Below, in pieces: positions 34,290 to 50,585 of a stretch of DNA of 64,000 nucleotides. Below the pieces are notes generated by a model. The model saw nothing but the letters and a program-made list of their open reading frames with translations, was not told the DNA's origin and made no database searches. Position 1 is the stretch's first letter; every line of letters begins with the position of its first letter. A program made the translations under genes and the position numbers. Source of the DNA: Heteronotia binoei (taxonomy: Eukaryota). The stretch lies in assembly GCF_032191835.1 (NCBI RefSeq), contig NC_083226.1, positions 108,562,001 to 108,626,000 of the forward strand, given 5' to 3'.

Positions 34290-34450
34290 AGTAGTAGGTT
34301 AGGGTACCCTATCATCATCAAGCCGCATGCCAAAGTGACAGCTGCCCCACCCATACATGTGTGCACACACACAAAAACGAATGCCATATGCTTCCTTATG
34401 GGAGAGGGACGCAACAGTCCCAGAGGGGGCGGCTAGAAATCTACACCTAC
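34290..34450 (+). repeat. Maverick left TIR
   Basis: First 39 bp identical to the reverse complement of the right end; high identity beyond that. Confidence 0.95.
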
Positions 34451-34647: not shown

Positions 34648-35408
34648 ATGTCTGGGGAAAGTGAATTCCAAAGTATCCTTTCCCACCTTCTAAGTCGATC
34701 GATCTTATATATTGCTAATTGTGAGACAAAAGTATTTAACCCCACAAACTGTCATAAAAGGTCAACTGTCCTAAAAAGGGCAGTGATTTCATGGTGAGAA
34801 CTGTTGAAATTTATGCCTCTCAGCCTTCTAATCTGATCGATCTTATATATTGCTAATTGTGAGACAAAAGTATTTGACCCCTCAAACTGTCCTAAAAGGT
34901 CAAGTGCTTAGACCGGGTCAAGATAAACAGAGGAAATTATGTTCTCACGTGATATATTTTCAGAGTCAAGTTGCCACATATTTTCTGACTCCCTCTCCCA
35001 CCCCCAAATAACTGTATTAACGATGTGTGAATGATCTTTAATGCTGCAAAACTTTTAAGACCAGCTGTAAACATACAACTTTCAGCATCATGGCAACACA
35101 GCTCAATGATTATCAAAGTAAGAATTTTTTGGGGGGGGGGTTGTGTGGATGTAAAACTACCAGCAGATAGACATTTAACAAATTTTACAGGTTCTTTTTT
35201 TTTTCATGACACAAACAAGCTGTAAAGATGTAAATGTAAAGTTTTCTGAATTAATTTGATCTGTTTTTTTTTTGACAGAGGTTATTTCACAAATGCACCC
35301 CCAGGCAGCTACTGTGTTTAAGGAGCCTGGTAAGAATATTAATTAATCAGCTCTTTGTTATTTTAATGGTTGGTTTTTTAGAAATGCCTTGTTTGCCAAA
35401 CAGATCTC

Positions 35409-35454
<46 letters not shown>

Positions 35455-36826
35455 TTACTTTTAACAGCATATGGGATTCAAAATCAATACTGCACAACTC
35501 TGTAATGCGGCAGTTTCTGCATTTTATATGAAACTAATGAAAGCTGTATAGGTTTTTAGGGAGGTTACTAGAATTTGGACGTTACAGTAAAGGTTTGTGT
35601 ATAAAAGATTTTAACACTTAAAGCTGCTTAGTTTTTACAACATTGTAATGCTGGAACAAGACTTGTAGAAGGTTTTATCAACAGATTTTAGGGGGTTTTG
35701 AATAATATTTTGACACACCTTAATACTCTGTGAAAAAGGCCCATTCATAGAAAGGAGCCCAACTCTCCAACACTTCCTGCATAGGTTCAACATTTAGAAC
35801 CACTGTCATGATGTCTATTTCAGCTGTTTCAGGTATTTTCTATAGTCGAGGCTTCCAACTTTTTCCACTGCTTAGCAAAATTATCCCAGCATTAGTTACC
35901 ATAAACCAACATACATATATGAACATATGAAGCTGCCTTATACTGAAGCAGACCCCTGATCCATCAGAGTCAGTATTGTCTACTCAGACTGGCAGTGGCT
36001 CTCCAGGGTCTGAAGCTGAGGTTTTTCACACCTACCTGCCTGGGTCCTTTTTAGTTGGAGATGCTGGGGATCGAACCTGAGACCTTCTGCTTACCAAGCA
36101 GATGCTCTACCACTGAGCTACCGTCCCTCCCCTTATGTATATCCCGTATGTATTATTAATTGGTTACAATTCTTGTAGAGTTTTTTTGTGGAGTCATATT
36201 TAACAAAAATAATTTAGTTCTAAACATCATAATCATCTTTTAAAACTTCCTGTACAAGTTTAATGTACTTTTGTCCAATACAATTGCGCAATTTTACATG
36301 ATCACAGCGTGTTTTTTGGTCTACATCTATGTATGTTTATTTTCTAGAATCTGTACCTGGAACATCACAAGCTGCTACGCCGTTGCAGGGTGATGGTGCA
36401 CCTCAAAAGAAACGTTCTGTGTCTACCAACAGCCAGAAGGAGCCTAAGCCTAAAAAGAGAAAAACTGACAGTGCAAGAACCAACGAAGGGTGTGTAATAA
36501 GCAATGGTGATCAACCTAAAAAGCAGATGGAATTCACTGAATCTCTTTTCAAACTCACTCAACAATTGAAAGAGAAAGATAATCTTATTAAGAAAGCCAA
36601 GGAGGCCTCTGATGTTGTCTGCAACAAGATCTCCAAGCTGTTTGACAACTATGAGACCGAATTGATTAAAAATTATGCAAAGTACCCAGCGTGTGCTGAT
36701 AGCGCTATACAGTACGGGGGGGCTCTGCCCTACAATGTCTCTGAAGGGGTAAGGGGCTCCCCAGACCTGATGTCTGTTCAAGCTGATGAGGTGGGGGGGG
36801 GAGGATGGAGAAGCACATTCTGCTAG
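34648..36826 (+). CDS. Predicted spliced Maverick left-end ORF (exons 34648-34660, 35279-35329, 36348 onward), possibly the pPolB N-terminus
   Basis: Phase-1 GT-AG junctions join MSGEK-VISQMHPQAATVFKEPE-SVPGTSQAAT... in frame; contains an NLS-like PKPKKRK and a coiled-coil-like stretch. Confidence 0.55.
35910..36132 (-). mobile_element. tRNA-derived SINE inserted in the Maverick
   Basis: Minus head GGGGAGGGACGGTAGCTCAGTGGTAGAGC...GGTTCGATCCCCAGC (A/B boxes) and an (ATATGTTC)-like tail. Confidence 0.85.
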
Positions 36827-39800
36827 CACCAATGTGGTTGGGGAGGGAGCAGCAGAGAGATGTGCAACCTCTCCATCACCTCCCAAAGTCTCCGACAGCC
36901 CCGATGGTGTGGAGGAGGTAAAGGCGGTGCTGGGGGGTCCAAGTGCCTTCCCACAACCTCCCGAAGTCTATGTGGAATGTGTGAGATGGTGGCAGAGGCC
37001 CTATGAAAGATTTAGGTCTTTAGTAACCAGCGAGGAATTTCGCTTTGTAAATTTAGAACACGTGCGTTCCTTTGCACATGCCTTGGAGGTGCTAACAAGG
37101 GGGATCCAGGATGTTCTGGATGAGATTAACGGCGGCATAGATGAGGGAGATTTTGTTCAAATGCGCCTATCGGGGGAAGGTCTACAAAACCCATTATTTT
37201 CATTTAAGAAAAAGAAAGACCATCTCAGCGCTGATGAGTTTCTGGAGTTTGTGGTAAATACGCTGCAAAGCAATAGAGAAATACTCCGCACCGACACACT
37301 GCGCTTAATTGTGACTGTTCCAAAGCCCCTGAGGGCGGTGCTCATCGTAGTATCAAGTTTATCCCTTACAGTTCAATAATTGAAAAAAAAATGGCGTTTT
37401 TTGGTAGATTTTTCAGATTATAACAACAATCTATGCTTCACGGCGGGGCTCATGGGTGTAATGAAAAGAGTGGGGGATCTTTCTGACGTAATCCTTTTAG
37501 AGGCAGCTAGAAAATTAGGATGGTATGATCAGAAAAAGGTGGGTCTCTGTGACATATCAGCAGTTGAGGAACATTTAAAAGTGAACATTCATGTTGTGTT
37601 GTGTTCTGATAAGGGATGGAGTATATTTAAAACGCAGCCCCCAAAATATCCTGAGACCCATTTTATGCTTTTACATAGTGATCATTTTTATGGCATTCTT
37701 CACATTAAGAGATTTTTTTGGGTCTAGGAATTATTGCAGGTATTGTTACACCCTATACAACCAATACCATAATTGTTCTCAATTTTGTAGAATGTGTTCC
37801 ACCGCAGAATGTAAAACGATCCTAGGGACACCTAAGAAATGTCCCAACTGCTGCTTGTATTGTAGCAGCGACTTTTGTTTTAAGAGGCATGGTGAGCTGG
37901 CGGCCCAAGATGAAACAGCATGTCCCTCCAGGGCATGGTGTACAAAACGCAGTACTTACAAGGACGTTATGCATCTGTTCGAAGAGTGTTATAGGAGGGC
38001 ATGTAGACAATGTGGTGGGAAGCTGGAGGATGATGAAGATTTCCACAGTCTGTGTTATTTAGAACCTCTGAAACAGCCCAATGTTTCGTCAAAATACATA
38101 TTTTATGATTTTGAATGCACACAAGACAACGTAGGTGGGGTGCATTGGCCCAATTATGTTTTTGCTAAAGCCTTGGGGGAAGATAAAAAATGGCGAGCCA
38201 GTGGTAAATCTTGGGAATTCAGGGGTGAAACGTGTGTTTATCAGTTTGTTAACACAATTACAGCACAAAAGCAGTTTAAGCATACCACCTTCATTGCCCA
38301 TAACTCCAAGGCTTACGATTCTTACTTTATTGTTAAGCAGCTGATTGAGGAGAGGTTGGATCCCAAACTGGTAGCCTTAGGGGGAAAGCTAATGTGCGTG
38401 AACATAAAAGGTCTCAACATAAAATTCATTGATTCGTTGAACCATCTTCCCATGGTCCTCTCTAAGCTGCCAAAAGTTCTAGGATTTTCCCAGAGTAAGG
38501 GCTATTTTTGTCATTTTTTCAACACTGAGGAAAATCATTCTTATGTGGGACTTTTACCATAGCCCAAATACTACGGGATAGACCTGATGATGCCCGAAGA
38601 AAGGGAGGCTTTCTTAAAATGGCACGAGGAGAAAAAGTCTAGAATTTTTGATCTCCAAAAAGAACTAGCTTTCTATTGCCAGCAAGATGTGAACATTCTG
38701 GAACAGGCTTGTACGTTGAACCGAACCGAAATTATGAGCATGACAGCCCAGGATGGTCTCAGTATAGATCCCCTACAATATCTCATATTGGTGGGGGTCT
38801 GTTTAGCCATGTACAGGTTTAATTTTCTGACACCTCTCTCGGTGTCAGTTTGGTGTAGTGGTTAAGTGTGCGGACTCTTATCTGGGAGAACCGGGTTTGA
38901 TTCCCCACTCCTCCACTTGCACCTGCTAGCATGGCCTTGGGTCAGCCATAGCTCTGGCAGAGGTTGTCCTTGAAAGGGCAGCTGCTGTGAGAGCCCTCTC
39001 CAGCCCCACCCACCTCACAGGGTGTCTGTTGTGGGGGAGGGAGATAAAGGAGACTGTGAGCCGCTCTGAGACTCTTCGGAGTGGAGGGCGGGATATAAAT
39101 CCAATATCATCTTCTTCTTCTTTGGTGGCCATTCCTCCTCCAGACCACTATCACAGGGAAACAAAGAGGTTTTCAACTTCTTCTATTCAGTGGCTCTGCT
39201 ACTTGGAGTACTCTGAAAAGATCCAAATACAACACTCGTTAAAGGGACAGGAATGTAAGGTTGGGAAGTATTTCCTAGATGGGTTTGCGGTGCTGAATGG
39301 GAAGAAAACAGCTTTTGAGTTTAACGGCTGCTATTGGCACGGCTGTCCACAATGTTATGAACCTAACAAAATCAATAGATTAGCAGGGAAAACATTTGAC
39401 GAGCTTTACTGTGCTACAAGGCGGAAGTATGATTACCTTAAAAGGATGGGGTTTCAAGTTGAGAGCATATGGGAGCACAAGTGGAACCGTCTTAAGAACA
39501 CTGACGAGGCTGTGAAAGCTTTTCTTAAAGCAGCAGACTTTCCTGATCCTCTGATTCCTAGAGATGCACTTTTGGGGGGGCGGACTAATGCCATTACCCT
39601 GTACTACAAAGCTGGAGAAGGAAAGCAAATACACTACTACGATTTCACCAGTCTGTACCCATTTGTGAATGCGACAAAGGTGTAACCTCTAGGCCACCCC
39701 GAGATCGTTCAAAATAATTTTGTGCCTCTCACAGAATATTTTGGATTGGCTAAGGTTAAAGTTTATCCCCTGAGAGGTCTTTTTTCCCCTGTGTTGCCAT

Positions 39801-44978: not shown

Positions 44979-45706
44979 TTTTTCCACGGTCGTAAGTGCA
45001 ACCTTATGATGACCTTGCCGTAACGGAATGACACGGGTTGATTCTGATCCGTCTTTATTTCTACACGGATTGTTTCAATATGCTGTTTGTTGACGGGGAC
45101 GTAGTGGGGCTCATCATAGATGACTGTGACAAAATCGTGAGTTTTCCCTCTTATCAGAACAAAGCACAGAAGGGGCATGGCTGTGTCCCCTACCAGCTGG
45201 TGTTCTATGATATCGGTATATAGGTACAGAGAATTAAACCCTTTGGTAATATCCGTTGCATGTTGAATGTTTTTGAACGGCGTGTTAGGGGGAATCCCCA
45301 GCAGCAGCGCTAATTCGTTACCCATGATGAAGTGTGTAACGCTCGAACTGACAAATCTAGTTTTCCCTGTTGTTTGGTCATAAAGGAAACGCACATTGGG
45401 TGGTGTATCGGCATGTTTCCGTACAGCCGTCTGCATGGCGTCTAATATATGGCGAACATCTTCATAATAGCCCTGCTTCACCTGGAATTCGTTTCTAGTA
45501 ATCTCGGTACAAATTTGGAACATCTATGGCTTACTGATCGTGTACCAGGTGTGGGGGTACTGAATTTCCACCAATCCCACTTCCCACTCCCCCCTCAAAT
45601 CCAGAGGCTTAAACAAGCGCACCGTGAAAGCTAAAGTGGTGTTTTCAGGAAATAGGTTCTTAGAAGCGTTGCTGGGTAGCGGGATGTAAAAACCGTCATC
45701 TTCCAT
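44972..45706 (-). pseudogene. Minor capsid (penton) protein, one frameshift
   Basis: FYIPLPSNAS..WEVGLVEIQYPHTW, SLYLYTDIIEHQLVGD...PLL, HYVPV. Confidence 0.9.
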
Positions 45707-46799
45707 CCTGTTCAACGATGTCTTCAGCTGGGACCCAGCTGTTAAATTTGGGTGGCCACCCCCTCCACTTCACTAAGATCTGCTTCTGTTTCTTGTTTGT
45801 CCGGGTTTTTATAATTTTCTCTAGCTTGTATGTTCTGTCTTTCCAACGAGTCACTTTCTGCAACTCCTCCGTGTAAAACCCTCCTAGGATTGGTTCACCG
45901 TCAAAATCTATCAGGTGGTACACGGGCCTCTCGCCCCTTCCCCCCACCTCTTCTATAATAAAAATTTCTTCTGTGAAACTCTGTTCATAACCCTTCTCAA
46001 ATGTCCCCTTTGTTCTAGAGACCCTCACACAGTCCCCTTTTCTAAACAGAACTTGTGTTTCTTTTTTGGGAGAACCCAGGACCGCACCATACACACACCT
46101 CCACACTGTAAGCGTGTTAGAGGGTTTGACATCTACAGGCAGCGTCTGAATAGTTCTATGGTGACTATGGTTATAACTTTTGACTAGGTCTTGTAACACA
46201 TCCATATACTTAAAAGTGTTATTGTGTGTAAAATATCTCCACATCCTGGTCTTTAAAGTTCTATTAAACCTCTCCGCTACGGCCGCCTTCACCTCATTGT
46301 TGGTGACAAAATGGCGAACTCCATGTTCCTTTAACAGAGCACCCACTTTTTAATAGAGAAACTCCTTGCCCCTGTCTGTTTGCAGCTTTTGAGGGACCCT
46401 CCCTGATCCTCTGAAAAAGCTTTTAAAAGCAGTTGCCACCTCGGCTCCACCTTTGTCTTTCAGAGGCACCATCCACGTGTATTTAGACGGGATGTCTATC
46501 ACTGTCAGAATATATTTATAGCCCCTGTTGTAATTGAAATATTGTTGCATATCTACCAAATCCGCCTGCCACTGTTCGTCAACATTCCCCACGATTACCT
46601 TGTTCCTTTTGAAACGCACCCTGACCGGTTTATGCATACTGTATGCGCCCTGATCATCCAACCACTCTTTCACCTCATTTCTGCTCAGCTTATACCCCCT
46701 CTTAGATGCTGCCTGAAATAGCTGTTCAATACCCCCAAAACTACCAACCTCCCGCGGATTATAATAAATCCCTTTTAACACATCCCCGTGGTGCGTCAT
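45696..46799 (-). pseudogene. Retroviral-like integrase with C-terminal chromodomain, one frameshift near 46348
   Basis: QWQADLVDM, LQTDRGKEF, AERFNRTLK, ILVKWRGWPPKFNSWV. Confidence 0.95.
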
Positions 46800-46871
46800 G
46801 ACACTTTGCTCTCTTTTGCCACAATGAAAGTATTTTTTATTATGCTGCATATATACAGAAAAACTGGATCT

Positions 46872-47970
46872 TCACTCTGACTTGTTCTGATTCTCATCTT
46901 TTTCTCCGAGTTGTTTCTGCTTCTCAGCATGCTCCATGGCTTTCCTTTGCAGAAATTTACACAGGTCTTTCCCCTTTACTTCAAACACCGTAAACTTTGG
47001 AACATCTACAGACACACTTTGGGCACCGTATCCCTCCTTTTGAAACAGGGCAACCAGTCTGCAGCAGTAGCAACAGCCTGGGTTTATCTCCTCACTAATG
47101 CATCTGGCCAATAGTGCAAAATCAACAGGTCTGTCCCACACCTGTGTTCAAAGAAGAAAACACATTTTTAGTTCAAATATTGCTTTGTTACATTCACACA
47201 GTTGGTGCAGTTTTATTACACTTACATCAGGGAATAAAGCCTCAATGCATGGGCGGTTGTCTTCTTCTTCCCCCTCCTTGGCTATATCAGCATCCATTGG
47301 AGGCACATGTGTTTGCGCTTCATAAGCCGGGGGTTCCCTCGCCTTTTCCACAGCTTCAGGCACCGTGTCTGCTCCAAAATCTTCAGAGGTATCCTCCACG
47401 TCCGCTCCAGAATCACCGATGGTACCGAGCTCAGCATCTGCTAGGGAATCTTCCTCATCATCTCTTTCATCGCCTGAATCTTGAAAGTGGGCTAGACCCC
47501 CACAGTATGGGTAGTGAAAGGAGTCAGGCCCCCCTGAGTTGACAGCTGCCACATTCTCTATCTAGAAGTTTGAAGAAGCAAAAAAAAAAAAATTAGTATC
47601 CCGCCTCATGAGCATGCCCCCCAATTCCACACACCTCATTTTTAGGTCTTACATTCAGATAGAGCATTTCCTCCACAATCTCCATATTTTCTTGTGCCTC
47701 CCCTCCATGTTCTGATTCCTTGCCATCGCTTTTGGGTGAAAGATGCATCATCTCCTCGTAAACAGGTTCCTCACCAGCATCGGCTTTCCCCCCATCGGTC
47801 TCCACTGGGTTCATATAATCATGAACAGCCTGTTCCAAAGCCGGAACCCCGTCAGCCTCCACAGCATTCATTTCTTCATAAAATGATGGTTCAACAGAGC
47901 CGGGAAACCAAAAGCAACAAATGCTTGCCATGGAGTGGGGGGGGGTCTCCCCTATTTCAAAGAGTTCCAT
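46872..47970 (-). CDS. Predicted 3-exon acidic accessory protein (exons 47970 or 47931 to 47635, 47561-47226, 47141-46872)
   Basis: Two GT-AG phase-0 introns (47562-47634, 47142-47225) fuse three ORFs in frame; AATAAA on minus at 46836-46841. Confidence 0.75.
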
Positions 47971-48289
47971 GGGAAAGCACCACCGACACTCATTGGTGTG
48001 TTTAAATGTCGCAGGGGACACGCCCTGTGACAACCAGGGTCGGCTGACAACATGTCAGATATATGGTACAACGACATTTCTGGCACTTGCACTTCCCACC
48101 TGTAAACTATTGACTTGGGGGGGGGGGTCCTAAAGCAATGTGTCTGTTTTTGAAAACTGTTGCATCTCCACATTTCTCTAAATAACGTCTGTGTTGCAAA
48201 ACACGCTTTTCCTCAAACAATATGAAGCCTGCTACACCAGTGGCTCACCCTCCTTTCCCCCCTTAGGAAACAGCAGGCATTCCTTGGGG

Positions 48290-48450
48290 GGGGGGTGGAT
48301 TTCTAGCCGCCCCCTTGGGGACTGTTGCATCACTCCCCCCATAAGGAAACATACGGCGTTTGTTTTTGTGTGTGTGCGCGCATGTGTGGGCAGGGCAGCT
48401 GTCACTTTGGAATGCGGCTTGATGATGATAGGGTACCCTAACCTACTACT
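48290..48450 (-). repeat. Maverick right TIR
   Basis: Reverse complement of 34290-34450. Confidence 0.95.
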
Positions 48451-49144: not shown

Positions 49145-50585
49145 TTCTTATAAACAAATTTATTAGTAACATATGGTAGCAGAATTATATCTACAACTTA
49201 TAAAGAGCTTAAAATAAAAAAAAAATCATTCTACCCCATATCTTACTTTCCTCCCACCCCTCCCTCCGTTACTTGACCCCCGCCAGTGTTATTTTTTAAA
49301 AAAAACAAATATTAAAGGTACCTTTAAACTATAAAAATCTTAATCATCAAAAATTGTCCAATGTCCTTTTATTTTCCACTCTTTCTCTACGTATCTTCTG
49401 AATTTCTTCCACTCCTCATTAAAAAGTTCTAAATCATAGTCTCTTAGTTTTCTTGTTAATTTGTCCATTTCACTCCATGACATAACTTTTGTAATCCAGT
49501 CCCATTTTTCTGGTATTTTTTCTTGCTTCCATAACTGCGCATACAATGTCCTAGCAGCTGAGAGCAAGTACCATATTAAAGTTCTATCTTCTTTTGGAAA
49601 TTTTTCCGTTTGTAATCCCAGCAGAAAAGTCTCTGCCTCTTTGTTGAATTCATATCCCAGAATCTTAGAGATCTCTTGCTGAATCATCTGCCAAAACATT
49701 TTAGCCCTCTCACAAGTCCACCACATATGGTAGAAAGAACCTTCATGCTTTTTACATTTTCAACACCTATCTGGCATCTTGTTATTCATCTTTGCTATTT
49801 TTTTTTGAGTCATATACCATCTATACATCATCTTAAAACAGTTTTCTTTAATACTATGACATGTTGCGAGTTTCATAGAGTTCTTCCACAGATACTCCCA
49901 AGATTCCATCTTTATTTCTTTATTTACATTAATTGCCCATTTTATCATTTGAGATTTCACTACTTCATCTTCTGTAGACCATTGTAAAAGTAATTTGTAT
50001 ACTTTTGAGATTAATTTCTCATTGTCTCCAAGCAGAACTCTTTCCATTTCTATTTGTTCTTTCCTTATTCCTTCGGCTTTAATATCATTCTCCATCAAGC
50101 TTTTTATTTGTTGCATTTGAAACCAATCATATTTATAACTCAGTTCTTCTGCAGTTTTCAGTTCTATTTTCCCACTTTGTATTTTTAGTAACTGGTTATA
50201 TGATAGCTGTTTTTCATTAACTGTTTTAGCTGTTAACTTTATCACTTCAGCTGGCACTATCCACAAAGGTCTCCTCTCATCACCATATTTCTTATACTTT
50301 ATCCACACATTTAATAGATTACTTCTTATATAATGGTGAGAGAAAAGACCATCCATCTTCTTTTTTCCGTAATACAAATATGCATGCCAGCCGAATTTTT
50401 TTCCATGGCCTTCCAACACTAAAAGTTTTTTATTTAACAGCGTTATCCATTCTTTCATCCATACTAAACAAATTGCTTCATGATACAGTTTCAAATCTGG
50501 TAATTGGAATCCACCTCTCTCTCTTGCATCTGTCAGTTCTTCCTCATATGTGCCCTGCAACCTTCAAAAACCACTTTTAAGGGGA
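49145..50585 (-). mobile_element. L1/Tx1-clade LINE, 5'-truncated (ORF2 C-terminus + 3' UTR)
   Basis: ORFs 49760-50560 and 49340-49726 with a CCHC knuckle (RC.KC...GSFYHMWWTC). Confidence 0.85.

Follow-up and report, generated by a model that had tools for sequence, protein, structure and literature searches.

Surveys of vertebrate Mavericks define intact elements by intronless ORFs, and whether these elements behave as viruses is an open question. In the available text of one such study (Barreat and Katzourakis 2021; PMC8097293), intact vertebrate Mavericks are described with terminal inverted repeats (TIRs), AGTAGT termini, a 6-bp target duplication, two inward-facing core modules, and accessory regions in the flanks, and no introns were seen in them. 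The element examined here, from the gecko Heteronotia binoei, is alike in its TIRs, termini, target duplication, modules, and flanking accessory region, but its accessory gene bears introns. Intron-bearing cargo is known from nematode Mavericks, in which, by the available part of a preprint (Widen et al., bioRxiv 10.1101/2022.07.12.499685), the genes wasp and krma lie between the TIR and the integrase, and modules are exchanged between elements. The gecko gene resembles this cargo in all three respects. The nematode genes, however, encode enzymes held to be host-derived and stand beside intronless core genes, whereas no enzyme fold or host donor was found for the gecko protein, which consists of intron-split Cys modules and short motifs. 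A further comparison is offered by the Oncoids of adintoviruses, which, in the available sections of their description (Starrett et al. 2021; PMC8502044), are accessory proteins known by short linear motifs beside Cys clusters, as is the gecko protein; "splic" has no match in the main text of that paper. Introners occur in dinoflagellate polinton-like elements (PMC12166617, in the portion available), and the accessible portions of two other preprints (10.1101/2024.03.25.586562 and 10.1101/2023.08.22.554363) contain nothing on spliced accessory genes.

The initial annotation of this locus proposed a spliced Maverick accessory gene and knew of no earlier description of such genes. This holds for the protein family, of which no account was found in the literature searched, but not for intron-bearing cargo as such, since the nematode cases were already known (Widen et al., in the part available). 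Public databases hold automated five-exon gene models, named only "uncharacterized" or "hypothetical." Comparison of the copies indicates that the accessory gene belongs to a gecko protein family, so far undescribed, whose exons are shuffled between elements. Should accessory genes and the N-terminus of the polymerase be spliced, annotation based on ORFs will have missed or shortened them, and some gecko "uncharacterized" host gene models would be Maverick genes. The best explanation as a whole, to which we give a probability of about 0.6, is a spliced Maverick gene whose product would be a lipid-anchored adaptor acting on host signalling and ubiquitin proteins.

The host element and the structure of the gene

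The window, by which we mean the whole stretch of 64,000 nucleotides that was analysed, holds an element of 14.2 kb from TIR to TIR. Its left TIR (34290..34447, plus strand) and right TIR (48292..48450, minus strand) match at 91% over 113 nt and 85% over 48 nt, both ends carry AGTAGT, and the flanking 6-bp target site duplication is matched at 5/6 positions. A Pfam search recovered DNA_pol_B_2 (E 6.6e-12), rve (E 2.9e-9), and Chromo (E 9e-12), all as pieces, together with a weak match of the protease to Peptidase_C5 (E 0.0047). The packaging ATPase and the major and minor capsid pieces gave no Pfam match, and these names are our assumption, resting on position and motifs. With its TIRs, AGTAGT termini, PolB, and rve with chromodomain, the element is a Maverick/Polinton of the adintovirus type, and its core genes are broken. 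A DNA search of the same genome, in which the best 40 of 209 candidates were scored, gave at least 56 matches, most of them 88-95% identical. Short, very abundant host repeats, probably SINEs, lie inside the element at ~35917-36130 and 38846-39115, one of them within the polymerase gene. Outside the right TIR, at 49340-50563 (minus strand), are ORF pieces without a Pfam match, which we take to resemble the 3' end of a LINE reverse transcriptase gene.

The accessory gene reads inward from the right TIR and stops just ahead of the integrase with chromodomain, which lies directly downstream as two pieces with Pfam matches (45696..46871, minus strand); this is the position given in the initial annotation. 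Most of the structure proposed there could be reproduced. The minus-strand segments 47970-47635, 47561-47226, and 47141-46872 (336, 336, and 270 nt) are stop-free and join in phase 0, both proposed introns run from GT to AG with the signals quoted for them and contain an in-frame stop, and the AATAAA said to follow the stop codon is found at 46841-46836. To this we added a pairwise alignment of 23 sister copies, with the window copy as reference. The limits proposed for intron 2 are exact: its donor is kept in 21/22 sisters and its acceptor in 21/21, and three Maverick lineages have it at one and the same codon, 83-92 nt long, with the exons keeping frame.

Intron 1 and the start codon needed revision. 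The acceptor of intron 1 stands (22/23 sisters), but the donor first chosen, 47634, has GT in only 14/23, and an in-phase donor at 47652 is more likely. The latter has GT in 20/23 sisters and GTAAG in all eight matched copies of a paralogous lineage (11 loci examined, 3 not matched), and it is placed like other donors of the family; in several of those copies the exon ends in ALYPD, comparable to the LFPD preceding intron 2. In the window copy the two donors tie on U1 match (6/9 each), and both may be used. Of the two start codons offered, ATG 47931 is kept in 23/23 sisters, while ATG 47970 is found in 12/22 and precedes a C-run whose length varies. The product is thus likely to have 294 aa from ATG 47931 rather than the 300 or 313 aa first given, although a 300-aa isoform may also exist, both donor GTs being intact in the window copy.

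In the revised model, all on the minus strand, a TATA-like element at 48001..48006, a putative promoter with similar context in other lineages, lies ~70 nt upstream of the likely start codon. Exon 1 (47653..47931; 93 codons from ATG 47931, 279 nt in 19/21 copies) encodes an N-terminal Cys/aromatic cluster and acidic tyrosine motifs. It is followed by intron 1 (47562..47652; 91 nt, phase 0, 85-128 nt in 21 copies), with the possible alternative donor 18 nt inside, and by exon 2 (47226..47561; 112 codons), which holds a degenerate Cys module, an acidic linker, and the first half of the last module. Intron 2 (47142..47225; 84 nt, phase 0, GTAAGT..ACAG) precedes exon 3 (46872..47141; 89 codons and the stop), with a CCxxC module at 47075-47061 and a C-terminal helix, and the polyadenylation signal lies at 46836..46841.

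Evidence for splicing and selection

A strict intron scan of both strands of the 64 kb, with a filter of GTAAG..polyY-YAG at 65-110 nt between in-frame stop-free stretches of 85 codons, returned two matches, both in the accessory gene; the filter leaves out donor 47634 by construction. Sister copies reading through as a single ORF, named beforehand as the observation that would count against splicing, were not found among the 23 examined, and the in-frame stop of intron 2 is present in 21/21 assessable copies. The sister lineages extend this picture. In the five-exon lineage (12 loci), all measurable introns run from GTAAGT to AG. The counterpart of intron 2 is 84, 85, or 86 nt long in the 11 measurable of these 12 near-identical loci, the third intron varies between 77 and 89 nt, and the exons of the eight closest copies align over their full length. 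Intron sizes shift among copies with the exons unchanged, which is the intron-confined length change that the initial annotation had looked to and a sign of selection on the gene. Lineage D, whose exon 3 is 53% identical, has a counterpart of intron 2 at the same codon, of 92, 83, 88, and 88 nt. Automated gene models from Heteronotia, Gekko, Eublepharis, Paroedura, and Sphaerodactylus share the junction C-x4-FPD|VW of intron 2. Intron 2 has the GT-AG ends, pyrimidine tract, fixed position, and varying length of a U2-type spliceosomal intron, and intron 1 keeps its GT-AG ends across copies, counting the donor at 47652.

The second expectation, a dN/dS below 1 in the exons, was borne out for exon 3, at 0.26-0.31 in 8 between-lineage pairs with bootstrap upper limits of 0.51-0.63. 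These pairs compare the window copy or one young five-exon copy with four lineage-D copies, and so represent two lineages and are not independent; their dS of 1.1-1.5 is near saturation. The module core of exon 3 gives ~0.1 where computable, and within lineage D values range from 0.38 to 0.82 with intervals spanning 1. Judged by these ratios, exon 3 is under purifying selection between lineages. The earlier caution that an intact ORF is by itself no evidence of selection was well placed, as the spliced frame is open in 7/21 assessable copies (the window included, 3 partial copies dropped).

Could the gene be an accident, with remnants of separate ORFs in decayed DNA that happen to carry splice-like signals? 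The low share of open frames would be in keeping with this, as would the outcome of one RNA run, of low depth and swamped by repeats (word share 0.08), in which no junction of the accessory gene is among the joints listed. But decay does not account for young copies with four introns and canonical ends, for frame-breaking length changes restricted to introns, for a junction shared by five genera, or for a dN/dS of ~0.3, and we regard chance as extremely improbable. With splice sites conserved across copies and lineages, the reading first proposed is upheld: this is almost certainly a real spliced gene, whose exons are very likely joined by the host spliceosome at conserved GT-AG bounds.

One feature goes beyond this. 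The middle of intron 2 is over-conserved between lineages, with 41 matches over 56-60 nt (shuffle mean 29.8, maximum 38 in 500 shuffles) where synonymous sites are near saturation, and plain splicing does not explain it. It lends some weight to regulated alternative splicing, by which intron 2 would be retained or regulatory and the two in-phase donors of intron 1 would yield isoforms, giving several products or feeding the integrase, whose start lies just behind the polyadenylation signal. Against this, the length of intron 2 shifts the frame among near-identical copies, such that the peptide of a retained intron is not conserved, and lineage D keeps the conserved intron with the integrase absent nearby. 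We consider such regulation rather unlikely, although it can hold together with the membrane adaptor that we favor.

Splicing may not be restricted to the accessory gene. The polymerase frame appears to begin in two short upstream coding exons (35090-35117 and 35279-35329) spliced to 36348 (together 35090..36348, plus strand), a leader read from the sequence and one RNA contig. That contig, from a related element, has the GT-AG joint at 35329/36348 with a short side of 26 nt, which makes it weak, and on this one contig related elements appear to make spliced RNA. The leader splice sites are also found in another copy with other intron lengths, where 803 stop-free codons follow the second acceptor into PolB. 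A parallel for this leader, not for the accessory gene, is the E2B unit of adenovirus, whose replication proteins are made from spliced mRNAs, with pTP drawn from two exons (PMC11304566, in the text available).

Proposed function of the protein

All named protein relatives of the product are from geckos. A search of 1.84 billion representatives gave 14 matches, all of the accessory-protein family, with no Pfam family above the cut-off and no match in a fold search. The protein model, made with AlphaFold2 from a 22-row alignment, is of the five-exon relative P0001 rather than of the window product, and has a mean pLDDT of 60.8 and a pTM of 0.39; it shows four helical islands (pLDDT ~60-90) in disordered acidic linkers. 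The plan of a module is a Cys near the end of an exon, a phase-0 intron, and a helix with CCxxC in the next exon, with acidic linkers between modules. The five-exon sister lineages have four such Cys-rich helical modules, with a phase-0 intron interrupting each, and full-length homologues carry two to four. The C-terminus is acidic or charged.

Beyond the modules, the protein is marked by short motifs. The N-terminal Cys cluster recurs across genera, and in some homologues MG and basic residues come before it; N-terminal Cys clusters are known to be acylated, and YxxM is a binding motif for PI3K p85. The first YxxM (47869..47880, minus strand) is kept in 22/23 sisters. A second acidic tyrosine motif (47749..47760, minus strand) is YxxM in the window copy and the five-exon lineage, a form that only 2/23 sisters share. 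The position of DSGxx[ST] (47364..47381, minus strand) is unmatched in the window copy, but the motif is present in 14/23 sisters and 4/5 lineage-D loci. Across 10 homologues (the 14 representatives minus 4 that do not span the linker), YxxM and DSGxx[ST] are each found in 7/10, against 1.76 and 0.07 expected from shuffles, and are each absent in 3/10; the shuffles control for composition only, the proteins being related and the motifs short. On the conserved motifs, the odds that the product is an adaptor tethered to membranes that acts on SH2 and SCF-beta-TrCP proteins are about even.

In the mechanism that we propose, a promoter inside the right TIR would drive a spliced, polyadenylated mRNA, and splicing would assemble two to four small helical modules, with one Cys before the phase-0 intron and CCxxC after it, that are predicted to bind metal. 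The N-terminal Cys cluster, with the MG and basic residues before it in some homologues, may anchor the protein to membranes. Phosphorylation of the tyrosines in the acidic YEEM motifs would let them bind SH2 proteins such as PI3K p85, and DSGxx[ST] is predicted to bind beta-TrCP, either limiting the life of the protein itself or diverting the SCF ubiquitin ligase from host targets.

Two viral proteins are alike in working only. Polyomavirus middle T (PMC10740393, in the available text) is the product of a spliced viral gene and a membrane scaffold with phosphotyrosine SH2 sites, which include YEEI in hamster and PI3K binding at Y315 in mouse. No relation of sequence or fold was found between it and the gecko protein. 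Middle T has a J domain, a small-t-derived PP2A-binding region, and a C-terminal transmembrane helix; neither of the first two was found in the gecko protein, which has no Pfam match, and in place of the helix it has a predicted N-terminal lipid site. The other is HIV-1 Vpu, an unrelated membrane accessory protein in which DSGxxS serves as the beta-TrCP site (PMC1933454, in the portion available); in the gecko protein, which is without a transmembrane helix, recruitment of beta-TrCP is a prediction.

The initial annotation had likened the gene to E1 and E4 of adenovirus. Adenovirus early units are terminal and spliced and have acidic linkers and Cys clusters, and these traits, together with the description of the Oncoids, recall a nuclear regulator of E1A/E4 or "Oncoid" type whose Cys modules would influence the cell cycle or transcription. 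Yet LxCxE and CR1 occur at chance level in the homologues (1/10 each), the Cys pattern is CCxxC rather than paired CxxC, and the N-terminus resembles a lipid anchor. The Oncoids, moreover, are marked by LxCxE/CR1 and paired CxxC and typically lie upstream of PolB (PMC8502044, in its available sections), unlike the gecko gene, which is spliced and lies on the integrase side. A nuclear role is accordingly improbable, and the motifs accord better with a signalling adaptor at the membrane. A conserved, selected protein with host-targeting motifs would allow a direct test of host manipulation by Mavericks.

Lineages, exon shuffling, and origin

The accessory gene is found both in elements that have an integrase and in shorter derivatives that retain Maverick termini. 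The window gene tracks the five-exon lineage up to 47701 and again from 47467, and in between shares a segment (47263..47722, minus strand; 80-91% match) with the paralogous gene of lineage E, with crossovers placed within 47722-47701 and 47467-47263. Blocks of exons have been exchanged between lineages, and the copy in the window is a three-exon chimera in decay. Its degron, one N-terminal Cys, and one module Cys are unlike those of most sisters, differences that fit a decaying insertion. The lineages within one genome preserve a history of how exons were shuffled in a virus-like element.

Is the gene of host origin, captured with its introns and carried as cargo like the wasp proteases and krma kinases of nematode Mavericks? 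It occupies the same place between TIR and integrase, it has introns, its modules are swapped between elements, and its named homologues are all from geckos. However, no cellular donor was found, as the 14 matches among 1.84 billion representatives all belong to the accessory-protein family, with neither a Pfam family above the cut-off nor a fold match. In the gecko's own genome the gene exists in many copies; those examined lie within or next to Maverick sequence wherever their flanks were checked, and the polymerase leader is apparently also spliced, so introns need not arrive with captured genes. We think host capture improbable. More tentatively, and at odds short of even, gecko Mavericks may have an adenovirus-like spliced programme that includes the polymerase leader, and a virus-native family with a new metal-binding module, exon shuffling at phase-0 introns, and the devices of middle T and Vpu combined independently. 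Were this so, it would show that a recently amplified lineage of vertebrate Mavericks tampers, like a virus, with host signalling and immunity.

The lineages differ in what surrounds the gene. Ten loci (L076-L085) share one 60-residue exon of the five-exon form without a difference, and in eight of these the identity is 98-100% across ~2.3-3.1 kb, from which we take the five-exon lineage to have amplified recently. Near-identical five-exon proteins stand in RefSeq as uncharacterized genes. Lineage D (L127-L136) consists of ~10 kb elements with AGTAGT termini and a TIR sequence of their own that keep the accessory gene; tblastn found no core genes in 10/10 stretches, and these elements are likely to be non-autonomous Mavericks. 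In lineage E (L106-L124) the paralogous spliced gene has another first exon and orders its modules differently. In 7/7 stretches of 10 kb no core genes were found beside it, and TIR or subterminal matches lie beside 5/7 copies. Since deletion derivatives are expected to keep their terminal regions, a benefit of the accessory gene to lineages D and E is not shown by its retention.

Some single loci are worth recording. L117/L121 resembles an intermediate chimera. At L076/L077 (G000:C3 near 70.48 Mb), two gene copies with equal scores stand tail to tail as an inverted pair, which is either an inverted duplication or an assembly artefact. Finally, two unnamed proteins, P0015 and P0016, come from contigs of up to 16,744 nt, the size of a Maverick, and correspond to exon 3 and exon 2, called as separate ORFs, which is what an unrecognised intron would produce.
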